The notes beneath the pieces are model-generated. The model was not told where the DNA came from. It worked only from the letters and a program-made list of their open reading frames with translations, and did no database searches. A stretch of 40,449 nt of DNA from an uncultured Prevotellaceae bacterium (GTDB lineage: Bacteria > Bacteroidota > Bacteroidia > Bacteroidales > Bacteroidaceae): NCBI GenBank assembly GCA_946187025.1, contig CAMHPM010000001.1:1-40449 (forward strand), given 5' to 3'. Shown piece by piece: positions 15,389 through 27,288 of this stretch. How positions within the stretch are numbered: the first letter of the stretch is position 1; each line of letters starts with the position of its first letter. The translations under genes and the position numbers were made by a program.

Positions 15389-18300
15389 TTACTTAATCAA
15401 GACTTTATTTCCATTAAAGATATATACACCTGGAACGGTAGGCCTGTCGGTGCCGTAGCGGATGCCCTGCAGGGTGTACCACACACCGTAGGCCATAGTA
15501 TCACCGACACCGTCGATGCCCGAGGCCATGTTGATGTCGATGACAAATGGCTCCCATGGTGTGCCTATGCTGCCATCGCTGGCATAGGTCAACGTGGTGC
15601 ATACAGTCCTGACTGTGCCATTGATGCTGGCTTTTATCTCGATAGGCTGTCCGCTGCCCTCGCCGGCCACGAGCAAGTAGTAAAGTCCGTCGTCGGCAAA
15701 AGCAGTACCACGGCACTCACCGTCGATGAATGCAGCAACCTCAGCATCGGTGACAGGCTGGTCGCCATCAGTGAGCATGATGACGAGGGCCATATTGTCA
15801 GGATAGTCGGTTGGTGCAACAGGCGAGAATGCAGAAGCAGGAGCTGGATGACGTGCAGCAAGCATTCGACGTGAAGGAGCCGATACAGAGACTGCTGGAT
15901 AGACAAAATGTTTCTCCGTAGTGTCTGTACTGAAATAGAGGTATCCTCTGCCGGCCTCTAACGCATCGAGGTTACCCTCCCATCCGTATGGGCCGTAGTA
16001 TGCAAAGGCTGTCTGCGACTTCACCTGGTCGCCCACCTGCGGATTGGCACCAGCCAATGCCTGGCCGATAGGCATGGTGGTCATAGGTGTGTAGGCAATC
16101 CAGTTCCAGTTCTTGCCGATAGTGACAGGAGTCTCTTCTCGTTTCACTTGCTCGCCGTTGACGATAAGCGGCTGTGGCAACTCGCTGTTGCCATCAATGC
16201 GTGTGAGCTGAAGCTTGTACATCGTGTTGGCATGTACCTCCTTCAGGTTTCCTGCCCAGTAGTTGCCACGACTGTAAGCCACGCCAGAAGTCTTGTCCTT
16301 CAGCTGTGCGTTCCAAGACACCAGGTCTTTCAGCACGACAGATGTCTTGGCTTGCACTGGCTCCACGCCCAGTGATATCCAGTTCCACCCGACGCGTATG
16401 TCGAGCGGCTGCTCTACGAGATTGCTCTTCTTGAATATCACAGGATGGTCGAAGGTACCATAGCTCTTGGTCGGGTCGAAGGCCAGAGATATCAAAGCGG
16501 AGTCAGGTGTCGCAGAGAATGACGCAGGCTGATTGATGATGACGTTTGTGTAGGTCATGCCTGTCGCAGCATCCCATATACGGAAGGTGACTGGCTGCTG
16601 CTTGTCGAGATTTGTCAGCACGCCGTTCACCATCTGTTGGGCATTGCCATAGACACTCATGGCCACATAGGCCGCACCACGCATCTGGCTAGGTGAGGCG
16701 ATGCCACGGCACTCGTCGCCTATGAAGGCAGCCAGGATGCTCTCGCTGTTGCTCATGAGAATACCGTTGACGTAAATCTGTCCGACAATACTCATGTTGT
16801 TCTCATAGTCATTCGGGTTGACACTCCATGATGGCTTATCGCCCTTCACATTCATCACGATGCGCAGAGGTTCCAGAATCTCGTTGTTACCCTGCAGGCC
16901 GATGGTCACATCATAATTGCCCACTGCAACTAATGGATTGACCTTGAAGCGCAGCGTCTTTGTCTTCAACGGGTCGATATCATCGGTATAGTTGCTTCCG
17001 ACGAGAGTGAGCCACTGCGGCAGGTTATACAAGAAATAGTATTCAGTGTTGCCGCCACGGTTCTCGATGTTCACGTCGAAGGTGTAGTCGTCGCCGTATT
17101 TCTTGATGATGTTCACTGAGTCTTTCATCCACTTCAGAGTGTTCAGCTGCACGTAGGTAGTCCATCTGATTGGTGCCGACTCGTTACCGTGCATGTCGTG
17201 AATCTTGTCAACTGTGACATTGAGTGTGCATCCTTCTACATCGCGTGCCTTGATGTCGGCACCCTCCTCCAGACGTATGACGATTTTACGCTCCGAGGCT
17301 ACAGGCTTGGCAATGATGCGGCTCTCGACCGGGGCGTTCTTCAACGGCGGTGTCGAAGCAACAAGCATCGTCTGTCCCGACGGAGTAATCGTCAGAGACT
17401 TTCCGTTAACCTTCGAATTAGGAGCCATGTTCTCAAGCGTTTCGACCATGGTGCTGACACCATTTTCCTTGCCTGCCTTCTCAAAAGGATAATAAGCCAC
17501 CAGTCCACGTGAAAATACATCTGCGGTATCGATGCAGTTGTATTGGTTGGCCAACAGGCGGCTCTCGGAGAGTGATGCATGCCAGATGCGCACCTCGTCG
17601 ATATTCGAGAAGTCTAACATGCCCTTACCTAAAACAAGCCTTGAGCCCACCAACGGCGGCACGTCGCGCTCAGCGATGACTGCTGTGCGCTGTCCTTTGA
17701 AATAGAAGCTGGCAGCCTGTCCGCGCACCACGTTCAGAGCCACATGGCTCCATCCATATACGTCGGGGAACTCACTCTTGCTTACCACCACCTGCTCCTT
17801 GTCTCCGTAGCGCAATATCCAGTCATTCTGTTGGTTGATATAGAGCTGCAGGCGGTTGCTGTCGTTGCTGCCAGTCTCGAAGACGGTACGCTCCTTATTG
17901 GCGTTACCACCTGCCGGTAGTACCCACATCTCAATTGCATAGCTGTCGCCCTGACCGGTGTTGACGCGGCTGATGTCGGCCACCACGCCTTCTTCATCGT
18001 CAAGCCGTAGAGCATAGTTTTTGTTGTCCAACAGCCACGAGTTGTTGACCATGAAGTCGTGGGTATGACGCGTGTCAGCAGCCACATAGCCATGACCTTC
18101 CTTCATTGGCCAGTAGTTGACGAGGCCATAGTCGTAGTTGTCTTTCGCCTGGTTCTTAGTGGCGGCAGCCTCAATCACGTCGCGGTAGATGCTGAACAGG
18201 GCAAGGTCGTGCATGGCACCATACATATCGCCGAGGTAGAGGTGGTTGTCGTCGGAATATTGTACCTGCTGAATTGCAGTGTCGGGTACTATCTGGTCGG

Positions 18301-21300
18301 TGAATAAATGTAGTGTGGTATTGCCGTAATTAGCCAGGGCACTGAACTTCCGCCCGGCCGAATTATAACTCAGCACGAAGTATGTCCACTCGTCTTTTGG
18401 CACCACGTCACTGCTGGCTATATCCACATGTCCCATGCTTACCACGATATGTCCTTCTTTATCGACTCTCAGGGCAAACTGCTCTGGTCCAAGTCGCAAG
18501 ATGCTGCCCGCATCATTCCATCTCATCCAGAAATCCACTGAGAAGTCGCCGTTAAGGAAGACAGGGTTCTGCGTCATCTGCTCGTCACCATATGGAGTGA
18601 GCAGTTTTGACACGTCGTGAGCCACAGGCTGGTCGTTGAGTTTGGCGGTGATAATGATGTTATCGTCGCTAATATAACCCGGTACGATGTCCTCGTTGAA
18701 TTCCACCACCAAGTCATCACCATAGCGCAGGATGCCATTGGCCGGCAACGGAGTGGTGAGATTGCGTGGACGCACATTGTCCTTGACCACGGCCACCTCG
18801 CTGCTGTACGTGTTGATATCCTCGGTGCCATACTTAGTAGTTGTATAGGCACGGAAGGTGTAGTTACCCTGTGGATAGAAATTGTCGTCGCTCATGTTGA
18901 AGCGCAGGCGCAGGTCGCCAGTGGCCGGGAGCACATGGTCGTGCAGCTTAGTGGAGTCGGAGCGATTGACGAGGAATGTCAGTGTGTCGGGCCGTGTCCA
19001 GGTTGTAGAACCCTCGTAGCGGTATTCAACACCCACCTTCGTCATGCCCTTGAACTGGCGGTTGAAGTTAGTGACTTTCAGTTCCAGGTCACCCTCGTTG
19101 CGTCCCAGCGTCTCGAGGTTGAGCACCGGCTCGCTGATAGCCAGGTCGACAGGCGATGAAGCGGGTACGAAGTGAGCATTGAGCGTCACCTCGTCGTAGA
19201 TTTTGAGAGGCTGGTACTGCGAGCAGAAGCGTATCTTGATGCCTTCGTAGTGCAGAACACTCTGGTCGGTCTGGCGTATGGTCAGCACCTTCTTCGTTGT
19301 CTCTTTATGATTCAGAAGCACCGAGCGTCCGTTGACAGGCACACCATCCATCAGTATCTCCAATCCCTTATCATTGGTTTGCTCCACGATAATAAGGTTG
19401 TAGCTGAAGTTGACTCCCTGATTCACGTTGGCCATGTTAGTGCAGTAGAGTGTGACATTGGCCTCACCGCCTGCAGGGATGTCGGTCACGGTGACACTCT
19501 TCGACGAATTCTGGTCGCCCACGGCTATACCCAATTGGGGTTGTTCCATCTGTTGTGTGGAATTGCCGAGAGGTGTCCCTGGATTATAATACTGAGTGAC
19601 CTCTTGTGGCTGGTAGGGATTGTAGGTCTGTCCGCCGAAGACACTGAAGAAGTCACTGTACTTCGGGTTGTCCGACTTGTAGATATTGATTGAGAGGTCG
19701 GTGTCGCGGTTGCCGTCGTTGATAGAGTATTCCCACTCGGTGTAGTTCTCCGACTTGGTGCCGTTACCCTTGGTGAATCCGCCTCCGTCTTCAGTGCTGA
19801 TGTTGACAATATCTCCTACCGTGGCCAAGGCTCTGGAGCGAAATCCGAACTTATCACCGAGCACGAATCCCATCTTCCAGGTACGCGTCACCTGGTCGTT
19901 TTTCGAGTGGCTGGTCCTCTTCGAGTAGCTATAGCTTGTGCCGCCGTCGATGGAAATGTTCTCAGGCAAGGATGTGTTCATCAGCTCCAGCTTGTTCTTC
20001 TCGTTCTCCTCGATGGCTTTCTCCCATGCCACAATCTGATTGTTGCACCATGCCACACTGTCTATAGCGGCTCCTGCAGGCGGTGCTGTCGTTTCCCAAC
20101 TCTTAGGTTTCGCCCATAGGTAGTCAGTTCCCTCGGTATAGTCGTCGAGGTTGAGTCCTTTCCACGTCAGGTAAACAGATTCCTCACCGTTGTTGACGTA
20201 TGACTTTGCCGCTTCTTGGGAGGCCACTTCGGTGAGGAAATTGCGACGCATGTCCTTCCACTTTGGTATCATGACCGTCTGCAACTCATACTGGGTATAT
20301 TTGAAAGCGGTGGCGATGGAGTCGCCGACAGCGATGGCATCTTCCAGTTTCAGCTCATAATTGCCAGTCTGCAGGTTCTTGCTGATGAAAAGGTGACGGC
20401 AGCCGCCGATGAGGAAGTTGGTGGAGGTGCCAACATAGACGTCGCCATCGGCACCCACGTATGGATAGGTGCCACTGGTGGAGACATTCTCTGTGGTGGT
20501 CTCTACATCTATTTTGTCGTAGTTCCATACCTTCTCCCACGAGGTGTTGACACCGATGTCCAATTCGTTCTTTATTGCATGTCCCGTTATGACCATAAAG
20601 CCCAAGCCAGTACCTTGCACTACGTCCAAGCCCCAGACTACATTGTGGATTAAGCTGTAGTTGCCGTAGGCGCGTCGGGTGTCGTAAGTGGTGGTGGTAG
20701 TGATCTTGCCGGTCTTCAGCTTGGTGGTTGACTTGGCTCCATGCGGGTCGCGCAACACGAAGTTCACATGGTCCGGTCCTTTGGTGACGAAGTTGCTGCC
20801 ATAGCTCAGCTGGCCGAGTACCACTGCGTCCATGTTGACAGGAACGTATGTGCGGTCCTTGCGGTTCATGTTGATAGAGAAGTGTCGGGTGTATGGTTCT
20901 ACGATGTTAGGCAGTCCCACTCCCCATCGGTAGATGAGGTGGCCATCGGCACCGAGCTGCGTGTTGTTGGTCTTCAGCTCGTAAATCTCGCCGGCCTTGT
21001 AGGGCGATGACGGGTCGTCAACCTGGTAGATGACTGCCTGCTCGTCGCTCATCTCGTTGACGAGCGTTATCTCCTGTCCTGTCAGTGGCACGATGTCGGT
21101 CACGTCTTCCTCGCCGTCGTGGTTCACGTAGCGCTCGAACCCGAAGATGTCGTATTCCACTTTATTGCCCATGTCGTAGATAGGATAGCCCACCAGGTAT
21201 TTCACCGAGTCGTTGTTCTGAGTCCACAGGTCGCCAATGGTATATTCTGCTCCCTGCTCGTCGGTATAGACTATTTCCTGCAAACCGAAGATACCAGGGT

Positions 21301-24300
21301 CGTGACCTTTCTCCGTAATTGAGATTTCAGGCGGTGCATAGTATGTGAACACTTTCTTGGTGTTGTACTTGTAGGCAGCAGTCACGCTGTCGCCTTTGGT
21401 GTCGTCCCAGTGGGTCAGCGAGTCGGTGCGTGACATGCCCGGGCTGGTGAGGTCAATCTCTGGCTGTGCCCCGAAGTCGATGTCGGGATTGTTGTCCACA
21501 CCAACGCTCTTCACCATATATTTCAGCGGCGGCAGCAGTGCAGAGAACTCTCCCGAGAGCGAGTCGGTGCGTATGTAGATGTACTTCGCATCGTAGTCGA
21601 TGCCCGTCCATGCCGTGCTTTGTATGGTGGTGGTGTCGCTCTGCCAGGTGCGCCGGGTTGTGGCAGTGGTGATGTGGTCGTCGTCGCGGCAGTTGAGCGA
21701 GAACGACTCGTTGAGCAGCCCCAGGCGTATGGTGGCTATGCCTATGTTGTTTTTCGACTCGGCAAAGCCCACAGCCAGTGTGTCGTTGCGCTCGCCACCG
21801 CCCACCCGACCGACGAAGTTGACGAGTGTGGAGTCGGTGAAATCGTGTGTCATGGCGCGGTCGAAGTAGAACGTACCCTCGGCAGGGAAGCGTCCGCCAT
21901 CCACCATTTTGTGGCTCTCCAGTTTTGCTTCGACATAGTGCCGGCCTATAGGCACTGAGATGTTGTAGTAGCCATTGCTTGATGTCATTACCGACTTGCC
22001 GTCTTTTGATACCGGCATACCGTCAACATAGAGCATGATACCCTCTGCCGGTACGTTCGTTCCGGCATAATAGACATAGCCGCTCATGGGGAATGACGAC
22101 ACATCTTCGAAGTCGGCAGTGTGTACGAGTGAGTTCTTGCCCACGAAGACCAATGTCTTGGTTGAGTTGAACTCGTGAACGCCATAGAGGGGAACTACGC
22201 AGTAGGTTGTACCCTCGCCGGTGAACGGTATGCCCTGGATGATGTAGTTGCCGTCGGCATCGGTTTTGGCTTTCATCTTCAGCGCATCGGGCGTGAGGGT
22301 TGACGATTGTGCATTGCTTCCTATCAGTCCGTGGTGCTTGCGATAGCTGCTACCGTCGCGTGAGTAGTCGAAGAACTGTGTGCGCAGACCCTCGTCGAAG
22401 GTCCAGTAGGTCTCCAGTTGCTTCTCGTCGCCTACGAGCAGGTGGTCGTAGTTCTCGATGATGTCGGCCTCGGTGAGGCATTTCGTCCACAGGCGGAACT
22501 CATCGACAGAGCCTTTGAAGTGACCCAGTTTGAACTGTGACACATTGGCCTGCGGCCAGGTGCTGCCGGCCGCCCACGTCTGTGTAGAGACCTGTACGGT
22601 CGGAGAGCCATTGTCGCTGCCGGGGGTCAGCACATAGCAGGTCAGCGTCGTGCCCTTGCGGGTCAGTGCCACATGGTTGTAGGTCTCTTTACGAAGTGAG
22701 ATGCTGTCGAATGCATCAGTGCTTGTCCCGTTGCAGAAGGCCAGCTGGCCGCTGGATGTCATGCCGAGACCGATGCCGCCTCCGAAGTCGGCTATCAGCC
22801 TGTCGCTGAATGTCTCGGGATAGAGCCACATCTGAATGGAGAAGTCGCCACTCTTGAAGAGGTTGGCAGCATAGTCCTCTGAAGGATACTGCCATGTCAC
22901 GGCTCCGTTCATGTCGGAGAAGTAGATGGAGTGGAACTGCTCTGTCTTGCCCGTATCATTGCCAGTGATTGTCATCACTACATCGACACCCTGAACGGCC
23001 GTACCGGTGGAGCCATAGGCAATGCGGCCAGTCACGGTGCCGGTGCTCTTGGCGAATCCGATGTCGGTCACCTCGCCAGTGATGATGGTTCCGTCAGAGC
23101 ATTTGTCTTCGACGGTGATACGGTAGTCGTAGTAAACTCCTGGCAGAGCCGTCTCGTCGGTGTAGAACATATAGTCCTCGTTGCTCGACAGGCGTGTGAG
23201 TACTTCCCACGCTTCGTTCTCCTGCTCGGCACGGCGCCGCTCCACGATGTATGTCTTGGTGTATTGCGAGCCCTGCTGGTCAACATGCCACGACAGTTTC
23301 ACCGAACCCTCATAGATGCCCTTTGACGCATCAAGTCCGTAGAACTTGGTTGCCTCGCCGATGGCCTTCGGATTAACGGTGTATGTGTTGAGCACCGAGT
23401 TGCCGATAACACCTTCTATGCGGTATGTATGTGGGGTACATGCATTGAGTGGCTCCTCGGTGTAGGGCACTCCCGTCTCTGAGTCTACCTTATTCTGCCG
23501 GTTGATGTGCTGGTCGGTGGTGCGGTGTTCCCATCGCATGGTGTTCTGCATGTTGCCTGGTGTCAGCGTGTAGATTGGCGAGTCTTCATCATCGACATAG
23601 ATGCGGAACTTGTGGCCGAAGCCCTCGGGATAGGCATCGGAAGTCCAGGTGAAGACGATGCGGTCGTCAAGCTGCTCTGCCTTGAAGTCCCTTACAGGTA
23701 CTGAACGTGTTGTGTTTATTGTCACCGTGGCCTGCGTGTCGTCGCGCCGTGTTGTCATGTCCCAGAAGTTCGAGACATAGTACACGTCGTAAACCGTGTT
23801 TGACTCGTTGGTGAATCCGCTGTCGGAATAGGCATTGACCTTTGATGTCAGTTCGGCAATCTTTGTGCCATCGCGGTAGACCACCCATTTGAAATCAGAA
23901 TAGTTGCCTGGGATTGAAGGGGTGTTCCATGCCAGGTTCACTTTCTTGTCGCCTTGGTTGAACACGCCTTTCAGGTTATTGGCCTTGATAATAGGTGGGT
24001 TGATGGTCACGGTTTTGCTGATGACCTGACTGTTGTTGGCAAAGTCGATATCGTTGGCAGAGACACCTACAAGATACGCCTCCACGGTGTAGTTGCCCAC
24101 ATTTATGCCTACAGGTGTGGAGGCAGACCATGGCCCGCCGTTCACCCTGTATTTCAGTTTGCCGTAGTTGCTGTTCCACGGATTCTTGGTTATCAGGTCT
24201 TGCTTCTTGCCATTGAATGTGAGGTCATTGGCGAAGGTGGGTTCCTCCTTCCACTTCAGTGTCTGTGTGGTGAAGTGTTGTTGTATATAGATAAAGTCGC

Positions 24301-24862
24301 CGCCGGCTTCTTTGTTCACGTCGCAGATGCCGGTGTATTTGGAGTTGCGCCACGATACGGCAGCCGTATTCGGATCATTGTCTTCGGCTGCGTTGGTCAC
24401 CGACATGGCGGTCAGCACACGCTCGTCGGCACCGTATGAGGCAAGTTGGCCACGGTCGCGGGTGTAATATACAAAGATGTCGGCACCACCGGCACCACGG
24501 TTGAGGTCGCCGTTGAACCCATTATTACTTGATACCCTGTAGTAGGTGCGACCCTCGAAGGTGAAGGAGTTCACCGCCTTGTCCGATGTGCAGATGTCGG
24601 TGATGTAGCCTGTCTCGGGATTGGCAGTGCTGCTGGTCTTATAAATGATATAGATGTCCCAGCCGCCGGCACCCTTGTTAAGGTCGTTACCCAGTACTGT
24701 CCAACCCTTGTTGATATACTCGGTTCGCACAGTGCCTCCCTTGCCTTTTTCTGCACCGATAGTCATCACCTCGGTGATGTACTCCTGGGCATGCATGTTC
24801 GTCAATGCACCTACCAACATGAGCGCTGTGGCCATTATGCGGGTCATTAGCTTTGTTTTCAT
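15389..24862 (-). CDS. Giant (3157 aa) T9SS-secreted multidomain surface protein, a putative lectin or adhesin
   Basis: Uninterrupted 9474-nt ORF. Domain map by residue: signal peptide 1-25 (..TNMHA|QE); three-fold repeat 27-198 (DLNKGAGGWDIYIIY / DLNRGAGGADIFVYY / DVNKEAGGDFIYIQQ); Fn3-like modules about 291-600; LamG-type modules about 641-825 (VDEFRLWTKCLTEADI), 2095-2255 and 2285-2462 (IDEVRIWHASLSESRL); CarboxypepD_reg-like about 860-985 (DADGNYIIQGIP, SSNGYYNISVPIGRHYVEA). The C-terminal YGVWYTLQGIRYGTDRPTVPGVYIFNGNKVLIK fits a type-A T9SS sorting domain. Confidence 0.9.
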   Translation of the reverse strand: MKTKLMTRIMATALMLVGALTNMHAQEYITEVMTIGAEKGKGGTVRTEYINKGWTVLGNDLNKGAGGWDIYIIYKTSSTANPETGYITDICTSDKAVNSFTFEGRTYYRVSSNNGFNGDLNRGAGGADIFVYYTRDRGQLASYGADERVLTAMSVTNAAEDNDPNTAAVSWRNSKYTGICDVNKEAGGDFIYIQQHFTTQTLKWKEEPTFANDLTFNGKKQDLITKNPWNSNYGKLKYRVNGGPWSASTPVGINVGNYTVEAYLVGVSANDIDFANNSQVISKTVTINPPIIKANNLKGVFNQGDKKVNLAWNTPSIPGNYSDFKWVVYRDGTKIAELTSKVNAYSDSGFTNESNTVYDVYYVSNFWDMTTRRDDTQATVTINTTRSVPVRDFKAEQLDDRIVFTWTSDAYPEGFGHKFRIYVDDEDSPIYTLTPGNMQNTMRWEHRTTDQHINRQNKVDSETGVPYTEEPLNACTPHTYRIEGVIGNSVLNTYTVNPKAIGEATKFYGLDASKGIYEGSVKLSWHVDQQGSQYTKTYIVERRRAEQENEAWEVLTRLSSNEDYMFYTDETALPGVYYDYRITVEDKCSDGTIITGEVTDIGFAKSTGTVTGRIAYGSTGTAVQGVDVVMTITGNDTGKTEQFHSIYFSDMNGAVTWQYPSEDYAANLFKSGDFSIQMWLYPETFSDRLIADFGGGIGLGMTSSGQLAFCNGTSTDAFDSISLRKETYNHVALTRKGTTLTCYVLTPGSDNGSPTVQVSTQTWAAGSTWPQANVSQFKLGHFKGSVDEFRLWTKCLTEADIIENYDHLLVGDEKQLETYWTFDEGLRTQFFDYSRDGSSYRKHHGLIGSNAQSSTLTPDALKMKAKTDADGNYIIQGIPFTGEGTTYCVVPLYGVHEFNSTKTLVFVGKNSLVHTADFEDVSSFPMSGYVYYAGTNVPAEGIMLYVDGMPVSKDGKSVMTSSNGYYNISVPIGRHYVEAKLESHKMVDGGRFPAEGTFYFDRAMTHDFTDSTLVNFVGRVGGGERNDTLAVGFAESKNNIGIATIRLGLLNESFSLNCRDDDHITTATTRRTWQSDTTTIQSTAWTGIDYDAKYIYIRTDSLSGEFSALLPPLKYMVKSVGVDNNPDIDFGAQPEIDLTSPGMSRTDSLTHWDDTKGDSVTAAYKYNTKKVFTYYAPPEISITEKGHDPGIFGLQEIVYTDEQGAEYTIGDLWTQNNDSVKYLVGYPIYDMGNKVEYDIFGFERYVNHDGEEDVTDIVPLTGQEITLVNEMSDEQAVIYQVDDPSSPYKAGEIYELKTNNTQLGADGHLIYRWGVGLPNIVEPYTRHFSINMNRKDRTYVPVNMDAVVLGQLSYGSNFVTKGPDHVNFVLRDPHGAKSTTKLKTGKITTTTTYDTRRAYGNYSLIHNVVWGLDVVQGTGLGFMVITGHAIKNELDIGVNTSWEKVWNYDKIDVETTTENVSTSGTYPYVGADGDVYVGTSTNFLIGGCRHLFISKNLQTGNYELKLEDAIAVGDSIATAFKYTQYELQTVMIPKWKDMRRNFLTEVASQEAAKSYVNNGEESVYLTWKGLNLDDYTEGTDYLWAKPKSWETTAPPAGAAIDSVAWCNNQIVAWEKAIEENEKNKLELMNTSLPENISIDGGTSYSYSKRTSHSKNDQVTRTWKMGFVLGDKFGFRSRALATVGDIVNISTEDGGGFTKGNGTKSENYTEWEYSINDGNRDTDLSINIYKSDNPKYSDFFSVFGGQTYNPYQPQEVTQYYNPGTPLGNSTQQMEQPQLGIAVGDQNSSKSVTVTDIPAGGEANVTLYCTNMANVNQGVNFSYNLIIVEQTNDKGLEILMDGVPVNGRSVLLNHKETTKKVLTIRQTDQSVLHYEGIKIRFCSQYQPLKIYDEVTLNAHFVPASSPVDLAISEPVLNLETLGRNEGDLELKVTNFNRQFKGMTKVGVEYRYEGSTTWTRPDTLTFLVNRSDSTKLHDHVLPATGDLRLRFNMSDDNFYPQGNYTFRAYTTTKYGTEDINTYSSEVAVVKDNVRPRNLTTPLPANGILRYGDDLVVEFNEDIVPGYISDDNIIITAKLNDQPVAHDVSKLLTPYGDEQMTQNPVFLNGDFSVDFWMRWNDAGSILRLGPEQFALRVDKEGHIVVSMGHVDIASSDVVPKDEWTYFVLSYNSAGRKFSALANYGNTTLHLFTDQIVPDTAIQQVQYSDDNHLYLGDMYGAMHDLALFSIYRDVIEAAATKNQAKDNYDYGLVNYWPMKEGHGYVAADTRHTHDFMVNNSWLLDNKNYALRLDDEEGVVADISRVNTGQGDSYAIEMWVLPAGGNANKERTVFETGSNDSNRLQLYINQQNDWILRYGDKEQVVVSKSEFPDVYGWSHVALNVVRGQAASFYFKGQRTAVIAERDVPPLVGSRLVLGKGMLDFSNIDEVRIWHASLSESRLLANQYNCIDTADVFSRGLVAYYPFEKAGKENGVSTMVETLENMAPNSKVNGKSLTITPSGQTMLVASTPPLKNAPVESRIIAKPVASERKIVIRLEEGADIKARDVEGCTLNVTVDKIHDMHGNESAPIRWTTYVQLNTLKWMKDSVNIIKKYGDDYTFDVNIENRGGNTEYYFLYNLPQWLTLVGSNYTDDIDPLKTKTLRFKVNPLVAVGNYDVTIGLQGNNEILEPLRIVMNVKGDKPSWSVNPNDYENNMSIVGQIYVNGILMSNSESILAAFIGDECRGIASPSQMRGAAYVAMSVYGNAQQMVNGVLTNLDKQQPVTFRIWDAATGMTYTNVIINQPASFSATPDSALISLAFDPTKSYGTFDHPVIFKKSNLVEQPLDIRVGWNWISLGVEPVQAKTSVVLKDLVSWNAQLKDKTSGVAYSRGNYWAGNLKEVHANTMYKLQLTRIDGNSELPQPLIVNGEQVKREETPVTIGKNWNWIAYTPMTTMPIGQALAGANPQVGDQVKSQTAFAYYGPYGWEGNLDALEAGRGYLYFSTDTTEKHFVYPAVSVSAPSRRMLAARHPAPASAFSPVAPTDYPDNMALVIMLTDGDQPVTDAEVAAFIDGECRGTAFADDGLYYLLVAGEGSGQPIEIKASINGTVRTVCTTLTYASDGSIGTPWEPFVIDINMASGIDGVGDTMAYGVWYTLQGIRYGTDRPTVPGVYIFNGNKVLIK

Positions 24863-24881
24863 GATGTTTTGATTTTTTCGT

Positions 24882-25802
24882 TTATTCTTGCTTTGTCAGT
24901 TTAAGGTTGGCAGGGTAGAACTTGCCAGCCTTCAGAGTGGCAGAGGCAGTGCCGGTGTAGGTGCCTTCGCTGTTTTCCACGGAGAAAAAGATGTTATATC
25001 CTGAAACAGGGAAAAGCGCCACATACACACCGTCGGTGGTTTCAGCGTCGAGGGTGATGACAAGTGGCCCGTCCCAGTCTTTTTGGGCTGCGGGCACCAC
25101 TGCAACATCGCCGACAGATGGGGTCAGTGTGCCTGTTAGCGGATAATCAAGTAGTGATGGGCCATAGATTGCATCATCTTCATAATACCGAATGCTGAGC
25201 GACTTCACAGCAATGGGGTTGGTGCCATCGTTGAACTCAAACTTGGCTAACGCCAAAAGCGACTGCATCGACGATATGGAGGCATTGGCCGTAGTCTCTG
25301 TCACCGATGTCACCTTTCCCACGCCATATACATAGTGATAGCGTTGGGCCACATCGCCCAGTGTGCCTTTCTGCCCGCTCAGGCTGATGGTGAATTTCCC
25401 CCTGTTCTCGCCCGACATGATGGGGGCAGTAGCAGGGTAGAGCAGCGCTATGTTGTCGTTCACCGAGCATCTCACCGTGCCGGTAAATGCCGACGTGGCG
25501 GCCGACGAAGAGGCATATAGAGTGCCGTAGTCCATCACACCAGAGCCGAACGAACTCACGTTGAAGTATGTTGCCGCATCGCCTGCGTTCCAGCTGGCTC
25601 CCAGTGTACTTATGTTGTCCGTAAGCGTTGCCCTGGTGAGGGGCACGTCGGACACTGTCATCTGCAACAGCTTTCTACCGTCGCCCTGTTGTTCCACCCC
25701 CTCCGGTTCGTCATCGTCAGCCGAACAAGAAGTCTGTATACAGCCCAATGGCAAAAGGCAAAACACTATCATGATGCCTATCTGTAAATTTAGTTTTTTC
25801 AT
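24882..25802 (-). CDS. Surface-exposed lipoprotein, fimbrillin (FimA/Mfa)-like, co-transcribed with the giant gene
   Basis: 306-aa ORF. The signal peptide MKKLNLQIGIMIVFCLLPLGCIQTSC is followed by the acidic stretch SADDDEPEG, which resembles a Bacteroidetes lipoprotein surface-export signal. Strings such as DVPLTRATLTDN and SLLALAKFEF resemble fimbrillin-family proteins. It lies 19 nt upstream of the giant ORF. Confidence 0.6.
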   Translation of the reverse strand: MKKLNLQIGIMIVFCLLPLGCIQTSCSADDDEPEGVEQQGDGRKLLQMTVSDVPLTRATLTDNISTLGASWNAGDAATYFNVSSFGSGVMDYGTLYASSSAATSAFTGTVRCSVNDNIALLYPATAPIMSGENRGKFTISLSGQKGTLGDVAQRYHYVYGVGKVTSVTETTANASISSMQSLLALAKFEFNDGTNPIAVKSLSIRYYEDDAIYGPSLLDYPLTGTLTPSVGDVAVVPAAQKDWDGPLVITLDAETTDGVYVALFPVSGYNIFFSVENSEGTYTGTASATLKAGKFYPANLKLTKQE

Positions 25803-25816
25803 GGTTTCCTCCTTTT

Positions 25817-25981
25817 TTATCTACGTGAAAAGCCCCCTTCCTCGTCCTTGTCATATCCCGACATCGAGGAACGGACGCCGCGTGTCGGTTCTTCGCTCGT
25901 CATGAGCACACTCTGGTGGACAATCATGGTTGCCATCACCGATGGCTTGGCATACTGTTGTTTCTTGATGTTCTGTTTCAT
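25817..25981 (-). CDS. Candidate 54-aa small ORF heading the lipoprotein / giant-protein unit
   Basis: Hand translation gives MKQNIKKQQYAKPSVMATMIVHQSVLMTSEEPTRGVRSSMSGYDKDEEGGFSRR*. It falls below the 60-aa cutoff of the ORF track. It has an A-rich leader (aaaataatcacacaaaaaaaatagcaacattATG) and stops 14 nt before the lipoprotein ATG. Confidence 0.3.
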   Translation of the reverse strand: MKQNIKKQQYAKPSVMATMIVHQSVLMTSEEPTRGVRSSMSGYDKDEEGGFSRR

Positions 25982-26137
25982 AATGTTGCTATTTTTTTTG
26001 TGTGATTATTTTATAATGAGCACATGGCGCCGGCCTCACCTCCACCGTCACACCCCACCGGGGGATGCGCGCCGAGCATACACCGACACATGCAGCAATC
26101 ATCGCCATTGCTGCCATAAACGTCACATTCTGTGACG

Positions 26138-26173
26138 CAAAGGTAACTATTTATAACGAAAAACATGTTTTTC
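26138..26173 (-). promoter_or_regulatory. Candidate promoter (-7 box TACCTTTG) with an overlapping perfect 16-bp palindrome for the sORF-lipoprotein-giant unit
   Basis: The minus strand reads GAAAAACATGTTTTTCgttataaatagtTACCTTTGcgtcacagaatgtgac. The palindrome is at 26158-26173, the -7 box at 26138-26145 and a GTCACA/TGTGAC hairpin at 26122-26136. Confidence 0.35.
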
Positions 26174-26380
26174 AAAACAGAAAAAACGCACTTCCCCTTC
26201 GTTTTTTACTGACTTACACCCCTCCTTTTGCAGAATAACGCCGAAAACTTGTATGCCGACCACCGGGCACGCAGCGCAAGACTTCCCGTCGGCATCATGC
26301 TCCGTCCCCATCAGCTTCTTGCCAAAGCTTCCCCCCCCTCGTGCCCCTGTACGGTGGCATCGCATTGGCATTTTCTTGAT

Positions 26381-26424
26381 GACTGCGCACTCTCGGCTCT
26401 GCGACCGCGCACTCGCAGAACGCC
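26381..26424. repeat. 22-bp-period repeat (2 units), CGAGTGCG-core family
   Basis: gactgcgcactctcggctctgc (26381-26402) and gaccgcgcactcgcagaacgcc (26403-26424). Confidence 0.7.
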
Positions 26425-26581
26425 ACGAAAACACATGTTGACAAATCAGCTATAATATACATTATATAATGTGTATCGCAATGTTAGTTTCATCGGCCGG
26501 TTTTGCATGGATGTGGGCTTTATTTAACGGCCTTTACTCAAAAAAGTATATAAAATGTGGCCGTAATACAATAAAAATCTG

Positions 26582-26589
26582 TAACTTTG
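26582..26589 (+). promoter_or_regulatory. Bacteroidetes-type -7 box (TAACTTTG) upstream of pyrE
   Basis: ctgTAACTTTGccac matches TAnnTTTG, 64 nt upstream of the pyrE ATG (26653). Confidence 0.4.
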
Positions 26590-26652
26590 CCACATGGTTC
26601 AGGCATAAGAGCCTTTACCTGCAATTCAAGAACAAAAACAAAAGAAATACGT

Positions 26653-27288
26653 ATGTCAACTCTTCAGACTCTTTTTGCAGCTAAGCTGCTCGAGGTTAAA
26701 GCCATCAAGCTTCAACCCGCTAACCCCTTCACATGGGCATCGGGATGGAAATCTCCGTTTTACTGCGACAACCGCAAGACTCTGTCCTACCCCGCCCTGC
26801 GCAGTTTCGTCAAGACAGAACTCACTCGCCTCGTCATGGAAGAATTTCCCGAGGCAACAGCAGTGGCAGGCGTGGCAACCGGAGCCATAGCACAAGGAGC
26901 ACTGGTGGCCGACCAGCTGGGTATGCCCTTCGCCTATGTGCGCTCCAAACCCAAGGACCACGGAATGGGCAACCTCATCGAAGGCACCCTGCCCGAAGGC
27001 TCGAAAGTAGTGGTCGTAGAAGACCTCATATCCACTGGCGGCAGCAGCCTGAAAGCCGTAGAGGCACTGCGACAGGCAGGACTTGAGGTGGTGGGCATGG
27101 TGGCCAGCTACACCTACGGATTCCCGGTGGCAGAACAGGCATTCAAGGATGCAGGAGTGAGACTCGTCACCCTGACCAACTACGAAGCTGTGCTACAGGT
27201 GGCATTGCAGACTGGCTATATCTCGGCCGACCAGATACCGACTCTCAACGAGTGGCGCAGCAATCCGGCTGAGTGGAAGGGAAATTAA
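26653..27288 (+). CDS. pyrE: Orotate phosphoribosyltransferase
   Basis: 211 aa from the internal ATG of ORF 26587..27288. It starts MSTLQTLFAAKLLEVKAIKLQPANPFTWASGWKSPFYCDNRK and has the PRPP-binding loop VVVVEDLISTGGSS. Confidence 0.9.
   Translation: MSTLQTLFAAKLLEVKAIKLQPANPFTWASGWKSPFYCDNRKTLSYPALRSFVKTELTRLVMEEFPEATAVAGVATGAIAQGALVADQLGMPFAYVRSKPKDHGMGNLIEGTLPEGSKVVVVEDLISTGGSSLKAVEALRQAGLEVVGMVASYTYGFPVAEQAFKDAGVRLVTLTNYEAVLQVALQTGYISADQIPTLNEWRSNPAEWKGN

Follow-up and report, generated by a model that had tools for sequence, protein, structure and literature searches.

One of the closest described counterparts of the locus reported here is the mfa1 operon of Porphyromonas gingivalis, in which Mfa5, a type IX secretion system (T9SS) cargo, is encoded together with type V pilin lipoproteins (PMC7835359). 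Our locus lies in a stretch of 40,449 nucleotides from an uncultured Prevotellaceae bacterium (GenBank assembly GCA_946187025.1, contig CAMHPM010000001.1, positions 1 to 40,449; hereafter the window, meaning this whole stretch of DNA) and, read directly from it, consists of three minus-strand genes. A small open reading frame (sORF, 25817–25981) for a peptide of 54 amino acids is followed after 14 nt by the gene of a 306-residue surface lipoprotein (24882–25802), and this after a further 19 nt by an ORF for a LamG domain-containing protein of 3157 residues (15389–24862), which we call the giant. When the window was re-read, every feature named in an earlier interpretation of this DNA (the original prediction) was recovered in its place.

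Both the mfa1 operon and this locus encode type V pilin-fold lipoprotein together with a large adhesin-like protein that carries Sec and T9SS signals, and in both the pilin has a conserved arginine after its first strand. The locus differs from the mfa1 operon in having a single pilin-like gene and no stalk or anchor set, in a cargo that is a 3157-residue LamG/beta-prism protein and not a von Willebrand (vWA) protein, in the short type of its C-terminal domain (CTD), and in an extra peptide gene, for which we know of no counterpart in the mfa operon. The original prediction had regarded the combination of a pilin-fold lipoprotein with a T9SS cargo as not described, which was too strong a statement given the precedent of Mfa5 (PMC7835359).

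The second point of comparison is the group of short CTDs found in Prevotella intermedia, which are 40–55 residues long, are cleaved and glycosylated, and have been modelled to bind PorV (PMC11969387). The tail of the giant is like them in its length range, in the isoleucine that follows the cut, in its motifs B, D and E and in being carried by unrelated secreted proteins. It differs in that it comes from rumen Prevotellaceae and has a longer spacing, of 11 residues, between motifs B and D. As to the lipoprotein, its best structural matches are pilin-like "putative cell adhesion" proteins of Bacteroides (3ufi, which is BACOVA_04980; 4eps; 3sy6, which is BF1861; 4gpv and 3up6), which are lipoprotein precursors; they differ from it in their partner genes and share 10–15% identity with it. 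In Flavobacterium johnsoniae the sprC-sprD-sprB-sprF cluster joins in one transcript a giant T9SS adhesin and the small accessory genes that its secretion or function requires. SprB, however, ends in a CTD of type B and is partnered by a protein of the PorP/SprF type, and the cluster contains neither a pilin-fold lipoprotein nor a peptide of about 50 residues.

In the literature we found no description of the three-gene cassette, of a giant LamG cargo with a single pilin-like partner, or of a peptide superfamily beside short-CTD genes, and nothing useful on 3UFI, 4KCA, T9SS cargo of rumen Prevotella or a small T9SS chaperone. The pairing of a pilin-fold lipoprotein with a T9SS adhesin (mfa1) and the short CTD (P. 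intermedia) are already known. Of the three undescribed features the main one is the peptide superfamily, whose members are consistently placed beside the genes of short-CTD cargo.

A small-peptide family beside T9SS-type cargo genes

Judged by its conservation, the sORF is a real gene and a member of a large, undescribed family of small peptides. A homologous ORF of 45–69 codons lies directly upstream of the lipoprotein gene in every related locus with enough upstream sequence, and the family hidden Markov model detects the peptide in each locus that has room for it. The gap to the lipoprotein gene is 2–21 nt, or the two genes overlap, in most loci, with gaps of up to 88 nt in a few. The peptide follows the pattern MKxxYxKPxxxxVxh..LLxxS..G.xxTISGY, then an acidic linker of variable length and a closing GFSQ, and these amino-acid motifs are kept at 20–40% identity. 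Pairwise ratios of nonsynonymous to synonymous differences (pN/pS) of 0.1–0.75 indicate purifying selection. The original prediction of a conserved, translated sORF is thus borne out as far as a conserved coding gene goes. Its description of the sORF as unannotated is not, as gene callers do call it and homologues have already been deposited as hypothetical proteins.

A profile search of 90% clusters returned 120 small proteins, all of them unnamed or "hypothetical" and one of them from the cultured species Prevotella lacticifex. An exhaustive HMMER search of 1.84 billion representatives raised this to 553 peptide clusters at E ≤ 0.001, nearly all of 36–130 amino acids. Across these clusters the N-terminal part of the peptide is conserved and the C-terminal part variable; members of the core subfamily, by contrast, hardly vary in ISGY and GFSQ, their C-terminal motifs. 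The family matched no Pfam or NCBIfam model. Translations of the window and of the homologues contain no signal peptide in the sORF product, and a reading of its N-terminus as a Sec signal or lipobox (LLAGS) was discarded because it has no hydrophobic core and no cysteine. AlphaFold2 gave no secondary structure for the peptide alone, using 101 sequences (predicted local distance difference test score, pLDDT, 66; predicted template modelling score 0.19); the pLDDT comes close to 80 in the first 20 residues alone.

In every context examined a member of the family flanks either the gene of a short-CTD T9SS-type cargo or that of a pilin-like lipoprotein. Variant peptides, which belong to the superfamily but have other C-terminal halves, lie 0–132 nt from short-CTD genes in the loci that we number L031–34, L024, L035, L043, L045/46 and L047. 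The variant peptide comes after a 572-residue GLUG-motif protein in L031–34 (14-nt gap), after a 1397-residue protein in L024 and after two further short-CTD proteins in L045/46 and L047. In L035 it overlaps by 4 nt the stop of a 389-residue protein that follows a distant giant, and in L043 it precedes each of two tandem 1100-residue beta-helix proteins, so forming two tandem units. In L042 a variant peptide comes before a lipoprotein that has pilin-like motifs and the signal CSSEDN.

Natural fusions join the peptide to one of these partners. In three peptide clusters (P0446, P0428 and P0458) it is fused in frame to a lipoprotein signal peptide, and in P0446, the sole fusion checked in DNA (L041), there is neither a stop nor a new start between the two. 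P0376 and P0381, which probably arose by deletion, combine the peptide with the strands at the lipoprotein's C-terminus. The fusions surfaced in the exhaustive HMMER search, and none was found among the long lipoprotein homologues. As an N-terminal extension of a signal peptide, the fused peptide may be compared by analogy with the extended signal-peptide regions of giant autotransporters.

The order of the three genes is also conserved, as the original prediction had expected. A homologue of the giant lies directly downstream of the lipoprotein gene in 23 of the 25 GTDB species-representative loci, the best aligned segment having 45–97% identity. Complete copies of the two genes are 8–48 nt apart or overlap by 4 nt, and their adjacency is kept among the species loci down to 38% lipoprotein identity. 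The full order of peptide, lipoprotein and giant is found in cultured P. lacticifex as well, and so it is in additional contigs to which divergent peptides led. When the flanking ORFs were compared all against all, the only other neighbour to recur was an AraC-type regulator, upstream in four loci. In the window the cassette is followed by housekeeping genes (lipoate ligase, glycine cleavage and pyruvate formate-lyase) and its upstream neighbour is a divergent phosphoribosyltransferase gene.

Two of the species loci depart from this order. L025 has its giant upstream of the peptide–lipoprotein pair, with a 396-residue ORF between them, and in L026 a related ORF of 419 residues follows the pair and the contig ends soon after. 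This common ORF of about 400 residues (MP..GQWQWQE..GIYH..; L025 8631–9821, L026 10985–12244) is present in exactly the two loci in which the giant is displaced or not seen, and it may be a mobile-element gene. In Prevotella communis (L036, CP091790, 5652–6001) a solitary homologue, 54% identical to the giant, follows a GH36 gene, and neither a peptide nor a pilin-like gene was detectable near it. In P. lacticifex and related contigs (L027–L030, 7100–10000) an Abi_2 gene, a regulator of the AraC type and a 67-residue ORF with one hydrophobic segment come before the cassette, which in some of these contigs adjoins CTnDOT-like tra genes and insertion sequence (IS) elements. The AraC gene lies upstream of the cassette in L012 and L014 too.

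The lipoprotein and the giant protein

The 5' end of the lipoprotein gene (25707–25802) encodes a lipoprotein signal peptide, the lipobox cysteine Cys26 (25725–25727) and an acidic export signal, SADDDE (25707–25724). In the window Cys26 is followed by SADDDEPEG. Among 24 aligned homologues Cys26 and Ser27 are invariant, the lipobox consensus is L-T-S-C and the family consensus reads CSSDDDE. The SSDDDE that follows the cysteine matches the lipoprotein surface-export signal C-SDDDD of Bacteroides fragilis (PMC5080379), and the proposal that the lipoprotein carries a Bacteroidetes surface-export signal is upheld by this consensus. There are more than 578 homologues of the lipoprotein, all from Prevotellaceae-type genomes or metagenomes and mostly from ruminants.

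The lipoprotein, whose body had been described as having fimbrillin-like strings, has a predicted type V pilin (FimA/Mfa) fold. Its AlphaFold2 model (pLDDT 83.8) is a two-domain beta-sandwich, and the best Foldseek matches in the PDB are without exception type V pilin-fold proteins of Bacteroidales: 3ufi, 4eps, 3sy6, 4gpv and 3up6, then Mfa3 (5nf4), Mfa4 (5dhm) and FimA (6kmf). The matches to the Bacteroides pilin-like proteins have E values of 1e-8 to 8e-5, a probability of 1.0, TM-scores of 0.34–0.5 and identities of 10–15%. The Pfam model Mfa_like_1 (PF13149) scores 18.2 bits on the lipoprotein, below its 27-bit cut-off, and is found in only 2 of the 120 homologues listed; one is named "fimbrillin family protein" by NCBI.

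The predicted first beta-strand, A1 (residues 45–54), and the site TR|A at Arg57 are encoded at 25632–25670. In the model the strand at residues 45–54 is followed by a loop of low confidence, and in the alignment Thr56 is invariant and Arg57 and Ala58 nearly so. In type V pilins a protease removes the first strand, which opens a groove for strand exchange (PMC7835359), and the position and conservation of Arg57 suggest that the lipoprotein may be cleaved there, at the type V pilin cleavage position. A likeness between TIEAVPL in the peptide and TIAEVP in the A1 strand was also considered; it shows no covariation across loci and was put down to coincidence.

The giant begins with a Sec signal peptide, MKTKLMTRIMATALMLVGALTNMHA|QE (24788–24862), recognised by inspection of the translation, in which the cleavage site is inferred. 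Its residues 51–130 (24473–24712) form beta-prism-like repeats with a weak phmmer match (E = 7e-4) to the C-terminal part of the toxin Mpf2Ba1 (8b6v, chain residues 377–447), a part that is a beta-prism domain. The same segment contains three repeats of a D-L-N-x-G-A-G-G-x-D-I-Y motif, and some homologues of the giant have a different N-terminus (AYNSNWKY...). Pfam assigns three Laminin_G_3 domains and a CarboxypepD_reg domain to the giant and leaves long stretches without assignment. The first LamG domain covers residues 667–801 (22460–22864), and a later LamG region, with two stretches in it, covers residues ~2301–2434 (17561–17962). The giant has 202 homologues, which NCBI names "LamG domain-containing protein".

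The last 43 residues of the giant, S|GIDGVGDTMAYGVWYTLQGIRYGTDRPTVPGVYIFNGNKVLIK (15392–15520), have the form S|GI..WYTLQG..GVYI..KVLIK. In our alignment of such tails (A4) the columns I59, Y72, G76, G88, Y90 and K96 are invariant or nearly so, and they correspond to the cleavage-site isoleucine and to motifs B, D and E of the published short CTDs. The tail thus has the x|G-I site, motif B (Y..G), motif D (GxY-I) and the basic motif E within a length of 43 residues. Proteins that finish in this short tail include a GH13 amylase, a serpin, a GLUG-motif protein, beta-helix proteins and, from a rumen metagenome, the arabinanase 4kca; the 7JVI paper does not discuss the tail. The Pfam model PF18962 is found in none of the 120 giant homologues listed. 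Short T9SS signals of rumen Prevotellaceae are missed by the standard models, so that their cargo is named only by its other domains. The C-terminus of the giant fits the published short CTD of Prevotella, and the view that it is a T9SS cargo is supported at the level of motifs. Short tails were seen also in L015, L018, L031, L043 and L047, and another kind of tail, ..GKIYxAxGAxVR, closes two homologues of the giant (P0343 and P0359).

The lipoprotein and the giant do not diverge evenly between close relatives. Between the window and L003 the synonymous divergence (pS) of the sORF is 0.03, that of the lipoprotein 0.27 and that of the giant 0.086, within which it is 0.11–0.20 over the first 600 codons (23063–24862) and about 0.05 over the remainder. 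This mosaic suggests that surface-exposed parts of the lipoprotein and the giant underwent allele exchange.

Proposed function and alternatives

On balance we favour the view that the cassette is an operon of rumen Prevotellaceae that builds a cell-surface adhesin module, in the following way. The three genes would be read as one operon from a promoter of the Bacteroidetes sigma-A type, with its −7 box at 26138–26145. The giant would be exported by Sec and would then cross the outer membrane through the T9SS by means of its 43-residue short signal, which would be cut near S|GI, the protein then being attached to the cell surface. The acidic export signal would flip the lipoprotein to the surface, where it would probably partner the giant as adaptor or anchor, a role proposed by analogy to the Mfa3/Mfa4–Mfa5 tip complex of P. 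gingivalis. We infer both the dependence on the T9SS and the contact between pilin and giant.

The peptide in this scheme would be unexported, extended and acidic, with a conserved N-terminus of about 25 residues and a variable, acidic and often aromatic C-terminal half. Working on the cytoplasmic side, either free or at the inner membrane, it might be an escort or assembly factor dedicated to its neighbours' precursors, which it would bind by strand addition, or alternatively a secretion-coupled regulator of those neighbours. We put forward such a role before export, of either kind, as a tentative possibility. Four observations suggest such a role: the peptide has no signal peptide; the fusion forms place it on the cytoplasmic side of one; its conserved half could recognise the only features that its diverse partners have in common; and it is small, acidic and encoded beside its partner, like secretion chaperones elsewhere. 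The class I chaperones of type III secretion, for example, are small, acidic and unexported proteins encoded beside the secreted protein that each serves. The likeness is an analogy only, as there is no relation in sequence or fold, and the peptide has 45–65 residues and is predicted to be unstructured.

A more general form of this proposal, which we hold to be doubtful, is that peptides of 45–65 residues are a widespread, hitherto unrecognised accessory component of the T9SS or of surface display in Prevotellaceae, each dedicated to its neighbour, be it a short-CTD cargo or a pilin-like lipoprotein. The N-terminal strand would bind the signal peptide or short CTD that the precursors share, and the acidic tail would give specificity or regulatory coupling. 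More speculative is the idea that the peptide might supply in trans the strands that short CTDs lack.

Several observations weigh against the adhesin-module reading or narrow it. Each cassette has one pilin-like gene and not the stalk, anchor and tip genes of a pilus operon, which makes a polymerising pilus unlikely; the lipoprotein is a pilin-fold protein and not a demonstrable pilus. Many short-CTD genes, among them those of the amylase, the serpin, a leucine-rich repeat (LRR) protein and the P. communis giant, have no peptide nearby, and the peptide is consequently not a general requirement. As the peptide has no signal peptide and its partners act outside the cytoplasm, any contact between them would have to precede export. 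The spacing of 11 residues between motifs B and D in the giant falls in the range of long CTDs (1–6 residues are reported for short ones), and PF18962, TIGR04183 and TIGR04131 matched neither the giant nor any of 17 tails scanned singly (E ≤ 1 to 10). No T9SS component was identified in the window, the source genome not having been scanned for one. Two metatranscriptome contigs, X1 (25963–26153) and X3 (26053–26304), run across the predicted promoter, although both are of low depth and come from runs only guessed to be RNA.

Among the other explanations the strongest is that the lipoprotein and the giant are merely co-regulated and have no physical link, the lipoprotein being an independent adhesin or protective surface protein. 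The solitary giant of P. communis is in keeping with this, as are L025 and L026, which keep the peptide–lipoprotein pair with the giant displaced or not seen, and the divergence of the lipoprotein, which in pS is far above that of the sORF and the giant. Yet the two genes stay 8–48 nt apart or overlap by 4 nt in 23 of 25 species loci, even where the lipoproteins are 38% identical, and divergence is likewise raised in the first 600 codons of the giant. We therefore consider mere co-regulation rather unlikely.

A different fate for the peptide, which we think improbable, is that it is a precursor made of a leader and a core, either an exported signal or a ribosomally synthesised and post-translationally modified peptide (RiPP), in which the N-terminal 25 residues (YxKPxhxVV..LLAGS) are cut off and the acidic half is released. 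The conserved N-terminus and variable C-terminus of the 553 clusters would suit such a precursor, and its YxxPxh motif resembles the leaders to which RiPP recognition elements bind. The variant peptide P0234 has radical SAM/SPASM genes in its vicinity, adjoining it in L031 (10688–11737) and about 6 kb away in L033 (3661–4611), but the sister loci L032 and L034 have no such gene. Furthermore, no maturase, protease or transporter is conserved beside the peptide in more than 30 loci and the NCBIfam RiPP leader models did not match it, the core subfamily keeps its C-terminal ISGY and GFSQ motifs, and the fusion forms put the peptide ahead of a Sec signal peptide. A lasso-peptide reading was dropped as well, there being no Asp or Glu at core position 7–9 and no maturase.

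Promoter region, transcripts and significance

The putative −7 box, TACCTTTG (26138–26145, minus strand), was read directly and is of the Bacteroidetes type TAnnTTTG. The window contains 25 matches to this pattern against 11 expected, and TACCTTTG is the sole one on the minus strand between the stop codon of the giant and the intergenic region upstream of the three genes. Together with the ATAAATAGT that precedes it the box is kept in L002 and L003. L002 has a lipoprotein 96% identical to that of the window and an upstream region that has almost wholly diverged, in which a short surviving island holds ATAAATAGTTACCTTTGC. More widely, 19 of 26 loci have a TAnnTTTG no more than 230 nt upstream of the sORF, where about 5% would be expected to, an enrichment that its formal P value overstates because the loci are related. 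The −7 box of the original prediction, and with it the assignment of the promoter, is accordingly supported by conservation. A scan for sigma-70 promoters and terminators gave weak consensus matches only, that consensus not being relevant for Bacteroidetes.

The features around the box fared less well. No TTTG lies at the −33 distance of about 19–21 nt in the window, where the nearest is 27 nt from the −7 box; L002 has a canonical TTTG 20 nt upstream of it. In the window the −33 position is occupied by a perfect 16-bp palindrome, GAAAAACATGTTTTTC (26158–26173), the only one of its kind there. First-order Markov simulations of the window give 0.61 such palindromes per window, so that GAAAAACATGTTTTTC is at the level of chance and alone is not significant. 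It is a lineage-specific feature, present in L001 and L003 and absent from L002, and the other, more distant loci compared contain nothing similar. It could be argued that a perfect dyad, exactly where the −33 element is expected and missing, and retained in two relatives, is the operator of a dimeric regulator that controls the operon in this lineage. The retention in L001 and L003 carries no information, however, because the whole region is near-identical there, and the chance expectation, the absence from L002 and all more distant loci and the lack of an adjoining regulator gene in the window make an operator quite improbable.

The inverted repeat CGTCACAgaaTGTGACG (26121–26137, minus strand), at the predicted 5' end of the transcript, had been proposed as a hairpin. 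It too is not conserved and is gone in L002; the predicted 5' untranslated region (UTR) folds no better than shuffled sequence (z = −0.89), and a scan of 24500–27000 matched no Rfam family. A structured leader RNA was rejected on these grounds. Both the palindrome and the hairpin are features at the strain level, with no evidence of function. That the sORF is a cis-acting upstream ORF, whose translation itself sets expression of the lipoprotein and the giant by coupling or arrest, would suit its place as first gene of the unit, 2–21 nt from the lipoprotein start or overlapping it, but is very unlikely given motifs kept at 20–40% identity under purifying selection, paralogues downstream of their partner in L031–34, L024, L035, L045/46 and L047, and in-frame fusion forms.

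On the plus strand, upstream of the divergent phosphoribosyltransferase gene, TAACTTTG (26582–26589) is likely to be the −7 box of that gene, in which case the intergenic region of about 600 nt would hold two divergent promoters. The long intergenic region between that gene and the cassette also contains a 22-bp tandem repeat, GAGTGCGCAGTCGCAGGCCCGA, with about 1.5 copies in the window (~26385–26425) and 4.5 copies in L003 (9320–9419). The loose ends of metatranscriptome contigs break at this repeat region.

Rumen metatranscriptome contigs cover the sORF, its junction with the lipoprotein gene, the lipoprotein gene and the 5' part of the giant; across the junction, a contig from an RNA-seq run spans 25772–25977. 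These contigs are of very low depth and possibly contain DNA, and they show only the presence of the genes in RNA libraries.

Little is known of the way in which rumen Prevotellaceae, which are dominant fibre degraders, display giant surface proteins. The standard T9SS models do not recognise short CTDs, which is why such cargo is annotated only as "LamG domain-containing protein". With P. lacticifex, at least one cultured species carries this compact, conserved cassette, which makes the partnership of a pilin-fold protein with a T9SS giant testable. The family of 553 peptide clusters, placed in every context examined beside short-CTD or pilin-like genes, suggests that an accessory step of secretion or surface assembly has so far been missed.

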